From UHGV virus genome UHGV-0172014: 12,663 nt of DNA. One strand, written 5' to 3'. Shown here piece after piece: positions 1,697 to 9,575 of this stretch (positions are counted from its first letter, which is position 1; each line of letters begins with the position of its first letter). Under the pieces are notes generated by a model. It was not told the DNA's origin and ran no database searches. It saw only the letters and a program-made list of their open reading frames with translations. Both the position numbers and the translations under genes were made by a program. The stretch comes from a virus.

Positions 1697-2131
1697 ATGT
1701 CCGGTAATATCTACACGCTGTACAAATCCCACTGTGAAAATGTTGGAAAGTATCGGGGCATTGAAATCAGTGGGGTAGTGTCATCAGTCGAAATAAGCAA
1801 AGTGGAATCAAGGGCAACATTACTTACTCTTCTGGACCTTGTCTTACATGAGCACCGGAAGAAATTCGGCACTCCCTATAATCAGTTGAATGGGAAAAAG
1901 GCTCTGGTTCACCTTATTCTGATGAAGCATCACTGGATGCCAAAACAGATTAATGAGATGAAATTTGATGAACTTCTTCTTTCAATTCAGGATGAACTCA
2001 CACTTGATAAAATAAGCGTAACCGCCCAGAAATTTTTAGATTATCGAGACTGGAGATCACAAATTCATCACTTTGATGATTTTGACGAAAATGAATGGGA
2101 TCCTAATTTGTCTGCACAATATCTAAAGTAA
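1697..2131 (+). CDS. Hypothetical protein (144 aa), AT-rich orphan gene opposite to the leftward operon
   Basis: ATG at 1697 with AAAGGA SD; uninterrupted 144 codons; visibly AT-rich relative to flanking phage genes; no family recognised. Confidence 0.6.
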   Translation: MSGNIYTLYKSHCENVGKYRGIEISGVVSSVEISKVESRATLLTLLDLVLHEHRKKFGTPYNQLNGKKALVHLILMKHHWMPKQINEMKFDELLLSIQDELTLDKISVTAQKFLDYRDWRSQIHHFDDFDENEWDPNLSAQYLK

Positions 2132-2309
2132 CATCCTGTGATAAAACCGTGATTTCCTGATCCAGTTTTTTTAAGGAGTCTATTGTTTCCTGTCGATAAG
2201 ACAGCACTTCACGAAGCTGGTTTATAGCTGCCAGCTTCTTTGCCATCCACTCGTAAATTTCCTCATTTGTGTATCCGGGCGCGACGATTTTGGGTTCTGT
2301 TTTGTGCAT
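2103..2309 (-). CDS. Hypothetical small protein (68 aa), first gene of the putative leftward early operon
   Basis: ATG at 2307-2309 (minus) preceded by a strong GAGGAGGTG SD with a 6-nt spacer (track start at 2324 lacks one). The 3' end overlaps the convergent 1697-2131 gene by 29 nt. Not Arg-rich, so not obviously N-like. Confidence 0.55.
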   Translation of the reverse strand: MHKTEPKIVAPGYTNEEIYEWMAKKLAAINQLREVLSYRQETIDSLKKLDQEITVLSQDVTLDIVQTN

Positions 2310-2368
2310 TTCACACCTCCTCAAGTTATCAGTTACTTGTTGATGGGGACCAAATTGTTAAAGAGCTA

Positions 2369-2396
2369 AGCGTCCTGTAGGGCGCTTTTTTGTTGC
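2369..2396 (+). terminator. Rho-independent terminator (plus strand only)
   Basis: Stem AGCGTCC / GGGCGCT (7 bp, one G-U pair), loop TGTA, followed by TTTTTTGTTG. The reverse complement has no U tract after the hairpin, so it should not stop leftward transcripts. Confidence 0.55.
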
Positions 2397-2564
2397 TAAC
2401 GAATCACCCTAGACTTTATATGCCCCAGGCGGCTACTTCGTGGGCGTCCTGCCTGTTCGTTTTTGACATTTACTGACCGCTTACGACACATGCACTATGC
2501 ACCGTGTTGCAACCAGATTTTGTTGTAATCCTGTAGTTGGTCTGGAACAAAAGATAAAATCAAA

Positions 2565-2602
2565 TTGCGAGATATGCAAGTAGTATTTTGCGAGATATGC
2601 AA
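2565..2602. promoter_or_regulatory. OL-like operator pair: two identical 15-mers TTGCGAGATATGCAA (2565-2579 and 2588-2602)
   Basis: Each 15-mer has dyad ends (TTGC...GCAA) and matches the TTGCG-N5-TGCAA motif found in the cI-cro intergenic region; located on the far side of cI from OR, as lambda OL is. Confidence 0.5.
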
Positions 2603-2610
2603 AATTATGG

Positions 2611-2636
2611 GTGATAAAAAGCCACCTTTCGGTGGC
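2611..2636 (-). terminator. Rho-independent terminator downstream of cI
   Basis: Minus-strand RNA forms GCCACC-GAAA-GGUGGC followed by UUUUUAUCAC (plus strand: AAAAAGCCACCTTTCGGTGGC), about 20 nt after the cI stop. Confidence 0.6.
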
Positions 2637-2656
2637 CGATGGATGGGATATTGAGG

Positions 2657-3349
2657 TTAATTATGTCTCTTAAGGGTTTGCGACTGACTGATTAAGACCT
2701 TTCCAAAGACCATGAATCGGTGTTCGTTTTCGCTAGTAATTCCCCATTCACGGTAAATCTGGTTATCAGAAATCACCAGCAGTTTGTCAGGAATCATTTG
2801 AAGTCTTTTAACGTATATTTTGTCATCAAAACCAAAGACATATATACCATCACCATCAAACTGATTGATGCTGACATCGACGAAGATGAGATCTCCTGGC
2901 TCAATGGTTGGACACATACTGTCCCCACGAACGTTGATAACTTTGATGTGATTGGCTGGTCGTCCGCCGAACATTGATACAGCATTATCAGTTCTGTATT
3001 CGATGGCATGAATCACATCAATGACATCACCGCCCTGGATAAGGCCATTTCCCGCACTGGCACTGATATCCAGCATTTCAATACGGAACACATCCTTCAC
3101 CTGCGCAACATCCTCATTATTACTGTTTTTATATACAGTATTACTTTTGAGGGCAGAGGTAAAGAGATCAGCAATATCAACACCTAAGCTCTTGGCAATA
3201 TTACTCAGTGTTTGTTCGGTAAATTGTTTCTGCTTACCCGTTTCTAAGCGCGAGATGTTCGCCGCATCTACTCCTATTGCTTCAGCGAGATCGGCGATTT
3301 TCATGTTCTTCGCTTGGCGAAGTTGTCTGACTCGGTTTCCTATGTTCAT
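2657..3349 (-). CDS. cI: CI-type prophage repressor (N-terminal HTH_XRE plus C-terminal S24 LexA-like autopeptidase)
   Basis: N-terminal HTH (RQAKNMKIADLAEAIGVDAANISRLETGKQ) and C-terminal S24 catalytic motifs (VRGDSMCPTIEPGD with Ser; YVKRL with Lys); divergent from a cro-like gene. No SD before the ATG at 3347-3349, consistent with a leaderless mRNA as in lambda cI. Confidence 0.9.
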   Translation of the reverse strand: MNIGNRVRQLRQAKNMKIADLAEAIGVDAANISRLETGKQKQFTEQTLSNIAKSLGVDIADLFTSALKSNTVYKNSNNEDVAQVKDVFRIEMLDISASAGNGLIQGGDVIDVIHAIEYRTDNAVSMFGGRPANHIKVINVRGDSMCPTIEPGDLIFVDVSINQFDGDGIYVFGFDDKIYVKRLQMIPDKLLVISDNQIYREWGITSENEHRFMVFGKVLISQSQTLKRHN

Positions 3350-3446
3350 GCGTTTATTACATTTCTTTATTGCGTGATAAGCAAATCAACTTGCGCAAAA
3401 TACTTGCGTGAAATAACATGCATAACGCGCAATATTTGGAGGATAT
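3350..3446. promoter_or_regulatory. OR-like divergent promoter/operator region between cI and cro
   Basis: Repeated operator-like sites: TTGCGTGATAAGCAA (3370-3384), palindrome TTGCGCAA (3391-3398), TTGCGTG (3404-3410), and on the reverse strand TTGCGCGTTATGCA (3419-3432). A possible rightward promoter is TTGCGC (3391-3396), 17-nt spacer, TAACAT (3414-3419); promoter hexamers are tentative. Confidence 0.6.
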
Positions 3447-3707
3447 ATGCAATCACCATTACGAAATGTGCGTAAGGCGCATTGTTTCACTTTGCAGCAT
3501 GTTGCTGCGGGTGTTCAAGTCAATCCAGCGACGTTGAGTCGTATTGAGAGGCTGGAGCAGATTCCATCTATCGAGCTTGCAGAACGTTTAGCCAATTTTT
3601 TTAAGGGTGAAATCAGCGAAATGCAGATTCTTTATCCGGCACGTTTTCAATCTAGCCAAAACCAGAATGGGTTTAAACCACAGGAACAGGAGGTGAACCG
3701 TGGGTAA
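3447..3707 (+). CDS. cro: Cro-like HTH regulator (86 aa)
   Basis: ATG at 3447 with GGAGGA SD; HTH segment (AHCFTLQHVAAGVQVNPATLSRIERLEQ); divergent from cI across the operator cluster. Confidence 0.75.
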   Translation: MQSPLRNVRKAHCFTLQHVAAGVQVNPATLSRIERLEQIPSIELAERLANFFKGEISEMQILYPARFQSSQNQNGFKPQEQEVNRG

Positions 3708-4251
3708 GCATCACTGGAAAGTAGACAAACAGCCTGAGTGGTACGTGAAAGCTGTCAGAAAAACTATCGCAGCGTTGCCGGGGGGTTACGCTGAAGCTGC
3801 TGACTGGCTGGATGTAACAGAGAACGCATTATTTAACCGCCTTCGTGCCGATGGCGATCAGATTTTCCCGCTGGGATGGGCAATGATTTTGCAACGTGCT
3901 GGTGGAACTCACTTCATTGCTGATGCTGTGGCGCAGTCTGCAAATGGCGTCTTTGTGTCTCTTCCTGACGTCGAGGATGTGGACAACGCCGATATTAACC
4001 AGCGTCTGCTGGAAGTCATTGAACAGATCGGCAGTTATTCAAAACAGATTCGTTCAGCAATCGAAGACGGTGTAGTGGAACCGCATGAGAAGACAGCAAT
4101 TAATGACGAGCTCTACCTCTCAATTTCGAAGCTGCAGGAGCATGCAGCACTGGTCTACAAAATCTTTTGCATTTCAGAAAGTAATGACGCCCGCGAGTGT
4201 GCAGCTCCGGGCGCCGTGGCGTGTCGTGACTGTGGAGAAACTAACGCATGA
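3700..4251 (+). CDS. Early regulatory protein in the CII/YdaT position (183 aa); family uncertain
   Basis: GTG start at 3700 with AGGAGG SD (6-nt spacer), overlapping the cro stop; position immediately after cro matches CII/YdaT-like genes of lambdoid prophages. Functional call is positional and from memory. Confidence 0.55.
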
Positions 4252-4606: not shown

Positions 4607-5537
4607 ATTAACCGGCTATGTATGGGATGGTTGCGCTGCATCAGGCATGAAATTATCCAGCGTGGCAATTATGGCCCGCCTGGCTGATTTCAGTAATGAC
4701 GAAGGTGTGTGCTGGCCATCAATTGAAACTATTGCCCGTCAGATTGGCGCGGGGATGAGTACCGTCAGGACGGCTATCGCACGGCTGGAAGCAGAAGGCT
4801 GGTTAACGCGTAAGGCGCGTCGCCAGGGTAACCGCAATGCGTCGAATGTTTATCAGCTTAACGTTGCGAAGCTTCAGGCAGCGGCATTTTCTCAACTGTC
4901 AGATTCTGACCCGTCAAAATCTGACGCATCAAAATCTGACCCGTCAAAATTTGATGCGTCGAAATCTGGCAAAAAAGCGGGTTTTCACCCGTCAGAATCT
5001 GGCGGGGATCCGTCAGTAAAATCAAAACATGATCCGTCAGATAAAAAACCTTCTCGTCCGGACGCTTCGCAACCGGACACGCAGACGGATGAACAGGATT
5101 TTTTAACTCGCCATCCTGATGCGGTTGTATTCAGCCCTAAAAAGCGCCAGTGGGGAACGCAGGATGATTTGACCTGCGCACAGTGGCTCTGGAAAAAAAT
5201 CATCGCCCTGTACGAGCAAGCCGCCGAATGTGACGGCGAGGTGGTTCGTCCCAAAGAACCGAACTGGACAGCCTGGGCAAACGAAATTCGCCTGATGTGT
5301 GTGCAGGATGGTCGTACTCACAAACAAATCTGCGAGATGTACAGCCGCGTCAGCCGCGATCCGTTCTGGTGCCGTAACGTGCTCAGCCCGTCGAAGTTGC
5401 GGGAAAAATGGGATGAGCTTTCCCTGCGCTTATCACCGTCCGTCAGCACGTACACCGAAAAACGCGAAGACCCGTACTTCAAATCCAGTTACGACAACGT
5501 GGACTACAGCCAGATCCCGGCAGGATTCAGGGGGTGA
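4596..5537 (+). CDS. Replication initiator (O-like: N-terminal HTH DNA-binding domain, low-complexity linker, C-terminal domain)
   Basis: ATG at 4596 with GAGG SD; N-terminal winged-helix/HTH-like region (SVAIMARLADFSNDEGVCWPSIETIARQIGAGMSTVRTAIARLEAEGWL); a tandem repeat array inside the linker, as the lambda origin lies inside gene O; position after the cro/CII block. Confidence 0.65.
   Translation: MSTKLTGYVWDGCAASGMKLSSVAIMARLADFSNDEGVCWPSIETIARQIGAGMSTVRTAIARLEAEGWLTRKARRQGNRNASNVYQLNVAKLQAAAFSQLSDSDPSKSDASKSDPSKFDASKSGKKAGFHPSESGGDPSVKSKHDPSDKKPSRPDASQPDTQTDEQDFLTRHPDAVVFSPKKRQWGTQDDLTCAQWLWKKIIALYEQAAECDGEVVRPKEPNWTAWANEIRLMCVQDGRTHKQICEMYSRVSRDPFWCRNVLSPSKLREKWDELSLRLSPSVSTYTEKREDPYFKSSYDNVDYSQIPAGFRG
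4896..5050. repeat. Iteron-like direct repeat array (candidate replication origin) inside the initiator gene
   Basis: Five head-to-tail 15-bp units (CTGTCAGATTCTGAC, CCGTCAAAATCTGAC, GCATCAAAATCTGAC, CCGTCAAAATTTGAT, GCGTCGAAATCTGGC; 4896-4970), then three degenerate copies (CCGTCAGAATCTGGC 4989-5003, CCGTCAGTAAAATC about 5010-5023, CCGTCAGATAAAAAACC 5034-5050) with A-rich tracts (AAAAAAGC, ATAAAAAACC). Confidence 0.6.
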
Positions 5538-7409: not shown

Positions 7410-8219
7410 ATGAATAATCTGATGGTCATTGATGGTATTGAAGTTCGTCGTGATGCTTATGGGCGTTACAGCCTGAACGATCTGCATCGCGCAGCAGTAG
7501 CATCTGGTGCAAATGCCAGAACCAAGGAGCCGGGAAAGTTTCTTTCCAGCCAACAAACTGTTGAACTTGTTCATGAATTGACCAACACCCAGAATTTGGG
7601 TGTTGACCCGGTGAGTGTGATTCATGGGGGAAATGAACGGGGAACTTATGTCTGCAAGGAACTGGTGTATGCCTATGCAATGTGGATCAGCCCGTCATTC
7701 CATCTGAAGGTGATCCGTACTTTCGACATGGTAACCAGCGCACCGGAAAAATTATCCGGACAGGCTGCTGACAAGATGCAGGCTGGTGTGATTCTGCTGG
7801 ACTTTATGCGTCGGGAGTTAAACCTGTCTAACTCATCTGTGCTTGGTGCCTGTCAGAAACTCCAGGAGGCTGTTGGCTTACCGAATCTGGCACCGCGCTA
7901 TGCCATTGATGCTCCTGCTGATGCACACGATGGCTCAAGTCGCCCGACACTGTCACTGAGTGCACTGCTGAAACAGTATGGTATACGCCTGACGGCTAAT
8001 CAGGCATATCACCAGATGGTGAAACTGGGGATCGTCGAGCAGCGCGAACGATACAGCCGTACCGCGATTAACAACATCAAAAAATTCTGGTCGCTGACAG
8101 CGAAAGGTTGCATGTTCGGCAAGAACATCACCAGTCCCGCAAATCCGCGCGAGACGCAGCCGCATTTCTTCGAATCCCGATTCCCTGAGCTGTTAAAGCT
8201 GCTCGATACCGTTCATTGA
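7410..8219 (+). CDS. KilA-N domain protein (possible antirepressor-type regulator)
   Basis: ATG at 7410 with AGAGGAGAA SD; N-terminal KilA-N/APSES-like signature (IDGIEVRRDAYGRYSLNDLHRAAVASG...KELVYAYAMWISPSFHLKVI). Confidence 0.75.
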   Translation: MNNLMVIDGIEVRRDAYGRYSLNDLHRAAVASGANARTKEPGKFLSSQQTVELVHELTNTQNLGVDPVSVIHGGNERGTYVCKELVYAYAMWISPSFHLKVIRTFDMVTSAPEKLSGQAADKMQAGVILLDFMRRELNLSNSSVLGACQKLQEAVGLPNLAPRYAIDAPADAHDGSSRPTLSLSALLKQYGIRLTANQAYHQMVKLGIVEQRERYSRTAINNIKKFWSLTAKGCMFGKNITSPANPRETQPHFFESRFPELLKLLDTVH

Positions 8220-8226
8220 GGTGACC

Positions 8227-9216
8227 GTGAGAGCACTACTGACCCCTGAAATTGCCCCGCGTATGGGGATCGTATTGTTCAGGCCAGGTTCAGAGCTGAT
8301 GCCCCTGTTTATGCAGGGGCGTGTCCTGCTGGAGCCTGAGCCGGAGCGTTATTCATCTTTCGCCAGTGGTGCCGTTCCGGCGGCATCACAACCGCTGGCG
8401 GATGATCCTGCCGTTCGGGCCGTGTTCCGCAATGAGGCAGTGATCCGTCGTGCTGGTGGCGTGGAATGTCTTGAAAGCTGGTTACTTCGTGAAAAAGGCT
8501 GTCAGTGGCCTCACTCCGACTGGCACAGCGAAAACATGACCACAACGCGCCATGCGCCGGGCGCAATCCGTCTGTGCTGGCACTGCGATAACCAGTTGCG
8601 TGACCAGTTCACGGAACGGCTGGAATCAATGGCAACGGATAACTGTGCCCGCTGGGTGTTATCTGTTGTGCGCCGTGATCTCGGTTTTGATGATAGTCAC
8701 GTTGTGACAATGCCGGAACTGTGCTGGTGGCTGGTTCGTAATGACCTGGCGGATGCCTTACCGGAAAGTGCAGCCCGTAAGGCACTGAGATTACCGAAGC
8801 CTGTTGTGCCGTCTGTTACCCGGGAAAGTGACCTTGTGCCTTCGGTTCCTGCCACCAGCATCATCCAGGATAAGGCGAAAAAGGTGCTGGCGCTGAAAGT
8901 GGATCCGGAGTCGCCGGAGTCTTTTATGTTACGCCCAAAACGTCGCCGCTGGGTTAATGAAAAGTACACGCGCTGGGTTAAGACACAGCCGTGTGCATGT
9001 TGTGGAAAGCCTGCTGATGATCCCCACCACCTGATAGGCCACGGTCAGGGGGGAATGGGTACAAAAGCGCATGACCTCTTTGTGTTGCCTTTGTGCAGAA
9101 AGCATCACGACGAACTGCATGCGGATACCGTGGCATTTGAAGAGAAGTATGGCTCTCAGCTGGAGCTGATATTTCGTTTTATCGATCGTGCGCTGGCAAC
9201 TGGCGTACTGGGCTGA
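8227..9216 (+). CDS. DUF968-like phage protein with a C-terminal Cys/His (HNH-like) cluster
   Basis: In-frame GTG at 8227 has a GAGG SD 5 nt upstream; the track start GTG 8221 overlaps that SD. C-terminal CACCGKPADDPHHLIGHGQGG...LPLCRKHHDELHAD; position between the KilA-N gene and Q matches DUF968 proteins of lambdoid prophages (family from memory). Confidence 0.65.
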   Translation: MRALLTPEIAPRMGIVLFRPGSELMPLFMQGRVLLEPEPERYSSFASGAVPAASQPLADDPAVRAVFRNEAVIRRAGGVECLESWLLREKGCQWPHSDWHSENMTTTRHAPGAIRLCWHCDNQLRDQFTERLESMATDNCARWVLSVVRRDLGFDDSHVVTMPELCWWLVRNDLADALPESAARKALRLPKPVVPSVTRESDLVPSVPATSIIQDKAKKVLALKVDPESPESFMLRPKRRRWVNEKYTRWVKTQPCACCGKPADDPHHLIGHGQGGMGTKAHDLFVLPLCRKHHDELHADTVAFEEKYGSQLELIFRFIDRALATGVLG

Positions 9217-9233: not shown

Positions 9234-9575
9234 ATGCGTGACATGTATGAAGTTTTGGACCGCTGGGGAGCATGGGCTGCAGCAGATAACAGTAGTGTGG
9301 ACTGGCAGCCGATAGCAGCAGGCTTCAAGGGGCTTTTACCTCATGGTAAAAAAACACGTCTCCAGTGTGATGATGATGAAGGGATCATGATAGACGGTTG
9401 TGTCGCACGGTTACGTAAATATAAACAAGAAGAATATGAGCTAATAATTGCTCACTTTGTTATTGGTATTTCATTACGCGCCATTGCGAAGAAGCGTAAG
9501 TGTTCTGATGGGACAATTAGAAAAGATATGCAAACAGCATTAGGTTTTGTTAGTGGTGTGCTATCAATGCTATGA
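9234..9575 (+). CDS. Q: Late-gene antitermination protein Q (short QuuD-like type)
   Basis: ATG at 9234 with GGAG SD (7-nt spacer); alternative in-frame ATG at 9216 overlaps the upstream stop. MRDMYEVLDRWGAWAA...AAGFKGLLP...CSDGTIRK resembles the small Q antiterminators of DLP12-type prophages as I recall them; position just before the lysis region. Confidence 0.7.
   Translation: MRDMYEVLDRWGAWAAADNSSVDWQPIAAGFKGLLPHGKKTRLQCDDDEGIMIDGCVARLRKYKQEEYELIIAHFVIGISLRAIAKKRKCSDGTIRKDMQTALGFVSGVLSML

Follow-up and report, generated by a model that had tools for sequence, protein, structure and literature searches.

Candidate operators on both sides of the cI repressor gene in a probable SfII/mEp460-type immunity region of a lambdoid Escherichia coli prophage

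The stretch analysed here, 12,663 nucleotides of the virus genome UHGV-0172014 (12.7 kb, hereafter the window), belongs to a lambdoid Escherichia coli prophage, of which it forms the early region. It contains a leftward cI repressor gene and a rightward, cro-like gene, and short palindromes recur in the DNA on both sides of cI, namely between cI and cro (candidate right operator, OR) and beyond the 3' end of cI (candidate left operator, OL; Table 1). Comparison with related phages suggests that the cI/cro region is an immunity module, i.e., a lysis-lysogeny switch, of the SfII/mEp460 immunity type, a reading to which we assign a probability of about 0.82. A prophage in the chromosome of E. coli strain E1 matches positions 2300–3720 with 99.9% identity. 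Over OL, cI, OR and cro, the nucleotide identity to Shigella phage SfII (KC736978 / NC_021857) is 97.7%, and that to coliphage mEp460 and to the Shiga toxin (Stx) 2 phages Stx2a_WGPS2 and 1720a-02 is about 90% (90.7% for mEp460). Among 5426 complete E. coli genomes, about 1040 contain at least 80% of the 2300–3720 region.

The two copies of the 15-mer TTGCGAGATATGCAA to the left of cI, which had been noticed in a preliminary description of this DNA, are indeed present in identical form and are non-random. When the whole window was scanned for TTGCGAGATATGCAA with up to three mismatches, only two further copies were found, at 3370–3384 and 3418–3432; the four matches compare with 0.48 expected, and four were reached in none of 200 shuffles. 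The sites left of cI and those on the cro side have the 15-bp palindromic consensus wTGCG-N5-CGCAw in common. A position weight matrix (PWM) trained solely on sites of the distant relatives ST64B, a Klebsiella phage, phiNP, Flotzy and ENT47670 ranked the same four positions highest in the window (scores of 15.3–17.2), followed by 3468–3482 within cro (13.2) and, at some distance, by the next best site with a score of 8.8. Five sites scoring at least 13.2 were observed against 0.11 expected (0 of 1000 shuffles). The idea that the two left 15-mers are a functionless recent duplication or a chance repeat could appeal to their identity in the window and to a population variant which lost one copy by a 23-bp deletion; it is nevertheless hardly credible in view of the shuffling results, and of the finding that in phages down to about 50% cI identity both copies carry their own central variants while the outer bases are invariant. 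We regard it as refuted in practice by the comparative data.

Table 1. Features of the immunity region and neighbouring early region; positions are those of the window, and promoters and operators are predictions
Feature	Position	Strand	Remarks
OL1, candidate operator	2565-2579		TTGCGAGATATGCAA; distal to cI; right half is the predicted pL -35
OL2, candidate operator	2588-2602		identical to OL1; 23 bp from OL1, centre to centre
ORa, candidate operator	3370-3384		TTGCGTGATAAGCAA; centre at -28 from the cI ATG; over predicted pRM -35; analogous to lambda OR3
Degenerate -42 site	3384-3399		minus-strand 15-mer TTGCGCAAGTTGATT, 3398-3384, overlapping palindrome CTTGCGCAAG, 3390-3399
ORc, candidate operator	3418-3432		ATGCATAACGCGCAA; centre at -76 from the cI ATG; over end of predicted pR -10 and start point; analogous to lambda OR1
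ORd, candidate operator	3468-3482		GTGCGTAAGGCGCAT; inside cro codons 8-12; at -126 from the cI ATG; 50 bp from ORc
Predicted pRM	3356-3384	-	-35 TTGCTT 3384-3379; 17-bp spacer; -10 TGTAAT 3361-3356; 6 nt to cI ATG
Predicted pR	3391-3419	+	-35 TTGCGC 3391-3396; 17-bp spacer; -10 TAACAT 3414-3419; start about 3426
Predicted pL	2551-2579	-	-35 TTGCAT 2579-2574; 17-bp spacer; -10 TATCTT 2556-2551; start about 2544
cI repressor gene	2657-3349	-	230 aa; HTH_3 and Peptidase_S24
cI intrinsic terminator	2610-2637	-	GGCCACCGAAAGGTGGCT followed by TTTTTAT; hairpin 2637-2620
cro-like helix-turn-helix gene	3447-3707	+	86 aa; Pfam HTH_3 (1.1e-07); annotated as cro in SfII; Shine-Dalgarno sequence GGAGG 3438-3442
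CII-like regulator gene (YmfL / Phage_CP76 family)	3700-4251	+	next in rightward operon; Pfam PF06892 (1.5e-13); phrog_101, CII-like activator (8.3e-70)
Structured element in pL leader	2399-2460	-	about 62 nt; P1 (2460-2456/2403-2399) encloses P2 (2429-2425/2412-2408); 27-nt near-invariant strand between
Hairpin and boxA	2355-2395		hairpin 2368-2387; plus strand: T6 follows, strong terminator; minus strand: boxA GCTCTTTAACAA, 2366-2355
68-aa gene	2103-2309	-	first of leftward operon; ATG at 2309; phrog_1744, full-length; Shine-Dalgarno sequence GAGGAGG 2322-2316
ECs1072-family, moron-like gene	1697-2131	+	converges on 68-aa gene

On the cro side, the preliminary description had counted four or more motifs. 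This count holds for the pentamer TTGCG (3370, 3391 and 3404 on the plus strand; 3432–3428 on the minus strand) but not for complete 15-bp dyads, of which there are only two between cI and cro. Instead of four or more equal sites, the OR region comprises two strong dyads centred at -28 and -76 from the cI start codon, a degenerate site at -42, and a dyad at -126 within cro. The 15-mer at -42 has three mismatches at core positions in the window, its left half alone being intact. The TTGCG at 3391 is part of the conserved palindrome CTTGCGCAAG, which coincides with the predicted pR -35 region and with the degenerate third site. Scanning the window for further sites, as had been proposed, yielded the full dyad in cro, which had been missed earlier, and elsewhere matches at shuffle level only; 8552–8566 (ATGCGCCGGGCGCAA), 9234–9248 and 8108–8122 were rejected, their scores not exceeding those of shuffled sequences. 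The TTGCGTG at 3404 was discarded as an operator because it is not conserved beyond the SfII/mEp460 group and its 15-mer differs from ORa at five positions, and a site midway between ORa and ORc (3394–3408, CGCAAAATACTTGCG) was discarded because its half-sites face outward and the site lacks conservation.

The layout was followed through relatives retrieved from one-genome-per-species contigs. From 77 loci, the 32 with a full-length cI (46–100% identity) were analysed; they span many genera of Enterobacterales, among them Shigella, Citrobacter, Kluyvera, Klebsiella, Pantoea, Erwinia, Proteus, Serratia and Yersinia. Dyads at -28 and at -76 or -77 from the cI start codon occur in almost all of them, and a dyad at -126/-127, inside cro, in 11 of the closer relatives. 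At -42/-43, many of the other relatives have good 15-mers such as TTGCGCAAGTCGCAT or TTGCGCAAGGCGCTT, and the palindrome CTTGCGCAAG is invariant in the phages compared. Downstream of the cI stop codon, at the threshold used, at least two dyads are present in 17 of the 32 loci, one in six, and none in nine. The OL pair of the closer relatives is spaced by 22–24 bp and lies about 61 and about 83–86 nt after the stop codon; in a distant clade, the downstream dyads are 15 bp apart. In the close phages SfII, mEp460, Stx2a_WGPS2 and 1720a-02, the outer TTGCG/GCAA bases are invariant at every site, and the central bases differ. The dyad in cro, TGCG-N5-CGCA, has survived codon and amino acid changes (V/L, A/S, H/Q) in mEp460, ST64B, the Klebsiella phage, phiNP and Flotzy, which points to selection at the DNA level.

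Operators on both sides of cI, with a two-site OL just past the cI terminator, are thus supported by the comparative evidence. The terminator itself, already proposed to separate cI from the left pair, is present on the minus strand, and a hairpin with T-run is found at the same place in every relative inspected (population diversity of 0.004). SfII, mEp460, Stx2a_WGPS2 and 1720a-02 share with the window all four strong dyads as well as terminator and promoter blocks. The DNA to the left of approximately position 2398 (SfII) or 2475 (mEp460) differs from the window, as is normal for mosaic genomes. In the public records of this immunity type, cI, cro and (for SfII) the terminator are annotated, the operators are not, and the searchable literature yielded no account of operators for SfII, SfV, ST64B or mEp460. 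An operator consensus, a site map and a map of predicted promoters, which were missing from the public records, are supplied here and may help to predict to which immunity group Stx-converting and serotype-converting prophages belong and how inducible they are.

The promoters pRM, pR and pL were read from the sequence, and their predicted positions are backed by positional conservation. In the mEp460 type, the -10 region of pR reads TAATAT. A -10 block AAGATAA at constant distance from OL1 is found in mEp460, phiNP, Flotzy and the Klebsiella phage, and the earlier suggestion that a pL-like promoter overlaps the left pair and reads toward the 68-aa gene is supported by such comparative sequence evidence. 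One may ask whether the left pair binds cI without controlling a local promoter, serving as a looping anchor or antivirulence element while the true leftward promoter lies elsewhere. The predicted pL fits the consensus poorly and was missed by the promoter scan, an operator of HK022 CI located away from promoters acts in immunity (PMC8053113), and a structured element in the pL leader (see below) is about 84 nt from the predicted pL start in the window versus about 5–12 nt in e14, phiNP and Flotzy. Given, however, the fixed distance of AAGATAA from OL1 in several relatives, the near-consensus promoter TTGACA-16-CATAAT which overlaps the operators at the equivalent position of e14, and the lack of any alternative leftward promoter in a scan of 2320–2560, a left pair devoid of promoter control appears quite unlikely, and we prefer its assignment as an operator of pL.

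The preliminary description had pointed out that cI is not preceded by a Shine-Dalgarno (SD) sequence, which was confirmed for the ATG at 3349. Of 29 distinct upstream regions, 15 have TGTAAT at -12 to -7 (at -13 to -8 in a single locus), and those of all closer relatives are among these 15. According to our own reading of the sequences, NNTAAT-like hexamers occupy this position in most of the remaining regions. The 6-nt gap between TGTAAT and the start codon is freely variable, and only four of the 29 upstream regions have an SD-like tetramer. A conserved -10 hexamer 6–7 nt from the ATG, followed by a variable gap without SD sequence, supports the notion of a leaderless cI mRNA, whose 5' end would be at or beside the A of the ATG.

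ATG 3349 is considered the true start of cI, since its first 15 residues, which helix 1 of the helix-turn-helix (HTH) domain requires, are conserved in the protein sequence. In the records of mEp460, Stx2a_WGPS2 and phiNP, cI is annotated from an internal methionine codon (Met16), resulting in genes of 648–651 nt. Because the 15 upstream codons are conserved at the protein level, these shorter annotations are probably due to mis-assigned start codons.

The cI protein shows an N-terminal HTH_3 domain (Pfam, 1.2e-11) and a C-terminal, LexA-like Peptidase_S24 domain (6.1e-19), and also matches CI-like PHROG families. Its identity to the repressor of SfII is 99.6%, and to those of the mEp460 group 96–97%; the closest characterised homologue is HK022 CI, with 42% identity. 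The motifs GDSM (S144) and VKRL (K181) align with the catalytic motifs of UmuD. Both residues, as well as A99-G100 and the N-terminal 15 amino acids, are invariant among six relatives, suggesting S144/K181 as putative catalytic dyad and A99-G100 as candidate cleavage site. With an S24 domain, Ser144/Lys181 and Ala99-Gly100, SOS induction by self-cleavage of the repressor is to be expected.

Conservation of the half-site is paralleled by that of the recognition helix of cI, AANISRLE; this bears on the question of whether another protein, such as Cro or the CII-like regulator, is the main ligand of the dyads. Cro is an HTH_3 protein as well, and as Cro and CI of lambdoid phages use common operators, the dyads cannot be assigned to one of the two proteins from sequence alone. 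Sharing of sites with Cro is, however, expected and compatible with binding by cI. Moreover, the dyads travel with cI although the downstream genes differ, and their positions are fixed relative to the start and stop codons of cI. In view of these associations, and of the joint conservation of recognition helix and half-site, we consider it very unlikely that the dyads are bound mainly by a protein other than cI.

Taking the dyads as cI operators, the switch might operate as follows. Dimers of cI would bind the 15-bp dyads. Occupancy of ORc would cover the -10 region and start of pR and shut off cro and the rightward early operon, while ORa, overlapping the -35 region of pRM, would limit cI synthesis at high repressor levels. 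The vestigial half-site at -42 and the dyad in cro probably add cooperative or roadblock repression. OL1 would cover the -35 region of pL, and OL2 is placed at a distance which permits pairwise cooperativity in lambda. In the lysogen, cI would be expressed from pRM as the leaderless mRNA proposed above. Upon activation of RecA in the SOS response, cleavage of cI between A99 and G100 would free pR and pL, and the pL transcript would run leftward through the structured leader (2460–2399) and boxA (2366–2355), reach the 68-aa gene and continue past it. OL and OR, about 820 bp apart, could plausibly be joined in a loop, as they are in HK022 and lambda.

Several observations weigh against this interpretation or parts of it. 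Nine of the 32 relatives have no downstream dyad within 260 bp of cI at the threshold used. A stringent consensus promoter scan reported none of pRM, pR and pL, which match the consensus at 7–8 of 12 positions (pL at 7 of 12). Since ORa lies over the -35 region of pRM, positive autoregulation as in lambda is not evident, and negative autoregulation is suggested instead; the -42 site, which could be an activator site for pRM, is degenerate in the window. Coding constraint on the L/V-R-K-A/S-H/Q stretch could partly explain the dyad in cro. Finally, no binding, footprinting or transcript data for the SfII/mEp460 immunity type were found in the searchable literature.

In phage lambda, each operator cluster consists of three 17-bp sites, OR2 at -42 activates pRM, and rexAB is located between cI and OL, with the clusters 2.3 kb apart. 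Neighbouring lambda operators are spaced by about 23–24 bp, a distance supporting pairwise cooperativity; the cI mRNA transcribed from pRM is leaderless, and the repressor undergoes RecA-stimulated self-cleavage. The window resembles lambda in the divergent genes for cI and an HTH-type Cro, in intergenic dyads which overlap the -35 region of the predicted pRM and the -10/+1 region of the predicted divergent pR, in a second cluster of two dyads (2565–2602) over the predicted pL, which is kept in relatives, in the spacing of about 23 bp between neighbouring sites, and in the putative leaderless cI mRNA and expected self-cleavage of the repressor. Unlike lambda, the dyads are 15 bp long, OL has two sites rather than three, the strong OR sites are 48 bp apart with a degenerate site at -42 in between, and there is an additional dyad in cro.

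HK022 offers a precedent for the compact layout. Its OL and OR flank cI at a distance of about 700 bp, an extra CI operator is located downstream of OR, and looping between OL and OR has been demonstrated; HK022 CI binds adjacent operators cooperatively (PMC8053113). The operator sequence of the window differs from that of HK022. There are three OL sites in HK022, OL2 and OL3 being separated by 53 bp, and the extra operator is about 300 bp from OR (PMC8053113), whereas in the window OL consists of two sites and the extra dyad is 50 bp from ORc. HK022 moreover uses put RNAs, and no similarity to putL was found in the window. The cryptic prophage e14 of E. coli K-12 (ymfK/cohE, ymfT/croE) is laid out like the window: its repressor gene is followed by a terminator, by a directly repeated operator which overlaps a leftward promoter, and by the same conserved leader element, and a ymfL-type, CII-like gene lies downstream in both. 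The convergent pair ymfI/ymfJ of e14 is arranged as in the window; however, comparison of the first leftward genes with e14 ymfJ and ymfI revealed no homology. The e14 repressor is unrelated to cI of the window outside the S24 core, and its operator differs (GGTACA-type).

The preliminary description was right in that the arrangement is compressed to about 0.8 kb and lacks rexAB, but as the clusters of HK022 show, this is not unusual. A compact OL-cI-OR module is standard for lambdoid phages, so that the earlier reading is correct in substance but ordinary, and the switch itself, which represents an immunity type common in E. coli, Shigella and Stx phages and fits the standard design, adds little. 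Two by-products of the analysis, the variability of OL and the element in the pL leader, may matter more.

The variability of OL was assessed first in 80 prophages from IMG/VR with identical cI protein, plus the window. Among the 80 loci, nucleotide diversity was 0.006 at third codon positions of cI and 0.008 in cro, whereas the operator centres reached 0.10–0.22, the spacer between OL1 and OL2 0.15, and the 15 bp adjoining OL2 0.13. The outer operator bases, with a diversity of about 0 to 0.05, are far less variable than the OL centres; fixed outer bases next to variable centres confirm which bases of the operator are constrained. OL positions outside these contacts vary about 15–40 times more than the linked synonymous sites of cI, and 49 OL haplotypes (positions 2566–2617) were counted among the 80 loci. 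One locus (IMG/VR contig 2529293213_000044) has retained only one OL operator after a 23-bp deletion, as could result from recombination between the direct repeats.

The second sample comprised 116 distinct segments of 1.33 kb, which were split into an SfII and an mEp460 clade. A 50-bp interval including OL showed 42 haplotypes in the SfII clade and 24 in the mEp460 clade, versus 2–11 in intervals across cI and cro. One identical backbone of 1190 bp was associated with nine OL haplotypes, which differ by single changes, and 79 of 210 site pairs within a 53-bp OL stretch failed the four-gamete test. The contrast was also apparent in an independent sample, the approximately 1040 complete E. coli genomes, of which 1016 had at least 95% identity to a 120-bp piece of cI and only 27 to positions 2530–2649; a piece of OR was intermediate. 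A second variable spot was noted in the SfII clade at 3443–3445, between the SD sequence (GGAGG) and the start codon of cro, with a diversity of 0.47 and at least eight different triplets. In the mEp460 clade, the same positions are not hypervariable (0.05).

OL may be a hot spot of recurrent change, caused either by recurrent selection on repressor affinity or pL strength or by hypermutability of repressor-occupied DNA, but we put this forward as a tentative idea, more doubtful than probable. If recurrent selection were at work, the induction threshold or the leakage of early-left genes would be tuned. A diversity-generating retroelement was considered as the source of the OL variability and rejected, as the list of open reading frames and the annotations contain no reverse transcriptase for the window or for the annotated parts of SfII examined; no dedicated search was made. 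An operator cluster evolving much faster than its repressor offers natural material for studying how a switch may be tuned by operator bases outside the repressor contacts, or whether DNA becomes prone to mutation when protein is bound to it.

Downstream of the predicted pL start, the leader contains a structured RNA element. In 98 distinct copies, 97.1% of the cells were paired, and nine of the ten base pairs showed compensatory changes; the covariation score was 0.70 as compared to 0.17 in shuffles (reached in 0 of 500) and at most 0.155 in register-shift controls. Counts of G.U versus A.C, about 12 and 10, respectively, did not distinguish between the two strands of the element. The whole 236-nt pL leader did not fold more stably than shuffled sequences (z = -0.09); structure is confined to the local element. 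Its core 23-mer is present in more than 120 viral contigs among the matches listed, and the element adjoins many types of OL and pL, including those of e14, ST64B, phiNP and the SfIV and SfV group. Searches of Rfam gave no match to it over 2398–2462 at E values up to 1 (whole window) or up to 10 (2300–2560). A put-type RNA as in HK022 was considered and rejected: blastn against the pL region of HK022 gave no similarity, a covariance model found one copy per phage and none in HK022, and the architecture, in which P1 encloses P2, is likewise unlike that of put RNAs. A second copy downstream of pR was not found, and mEp460-type, Klebsiella, ENT47670 and HK022 loci had none.

Farther along the leader, the rrn-type boxA GCTCTTTAACAA on the minus strand fits the gammaproteobacterial boxA consensus GYTCTTTAANA (PMC5725501). 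A hairpin followed by GCUCUUUAACAA, a perfect match to this consensus, is present in 76 of 211 loci with the leader element, including the window; ENT47670 has CGCTCTTTAAC on its leftward strand. Since SfII-type phages are reported to have no known N gene (PMC3851460), a cis-acting, Nus-dependent or put-like role of leader element and boxA in early-left transcription is an attractive idea. The combination of a widespread, covariation-supported RNA structure with boxA would make the pL leader a candidate for a new cis-acting early-left element. Read on the plus strand, this hairpin and its T6 tract would halt the convergent transcript of the ECs1072-family gene before it reaches OL.

The first gene of the leftward operon, proposed earlier from the open reading frame, appears to be genuine: it is annotated by the Prokaryotic Genome Annotation Pipeline (PGAP) in the 99.9% identical E. 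coli genome, matches phrog_1744, a family without assigned function, over its full length, and is preceded by GAGGAGG. It converges with the ECs1072-family gene and overlaps it by 29 bp, which implies antisense transcription across the 68-aa gene. To the right of cro, the homologue of the CII-like gene at 3700–4251 is labelled cII in the SfII record, in line with the PF06892 and phrog_101 matches, in contrast to a published comparison stating that the cII gene is missing from SfII (PMC3851460).

Minor observations concern possible small RNAs and the replication region. Positions 1364–1586 on the minus strand match the gammaproteobacterial small RNA STnc100 (Rfam) over its full length, with 38.4 bits, i.e., below the gathering score of 47 (E = 1.7e-05); in the near-identical prophage of E. 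coli E1, PGAP calls a frameshifted pseudogene in this region. For E. coli RS218, whose mEp460-like prophage includes a long intergenic region, a small RNA of 193 nt, sRNA-17, has been reported from that region (PMC7719688). An Rfam match to mir-5880 at 4897–4971 was rejected as an artefact of a 15-bp tandem repeat, TCTGACCCGTCAAAA, which occurs four times at 4905–4968 inside the O-like replication gene; these repeats are probably iterons of the replication origin.

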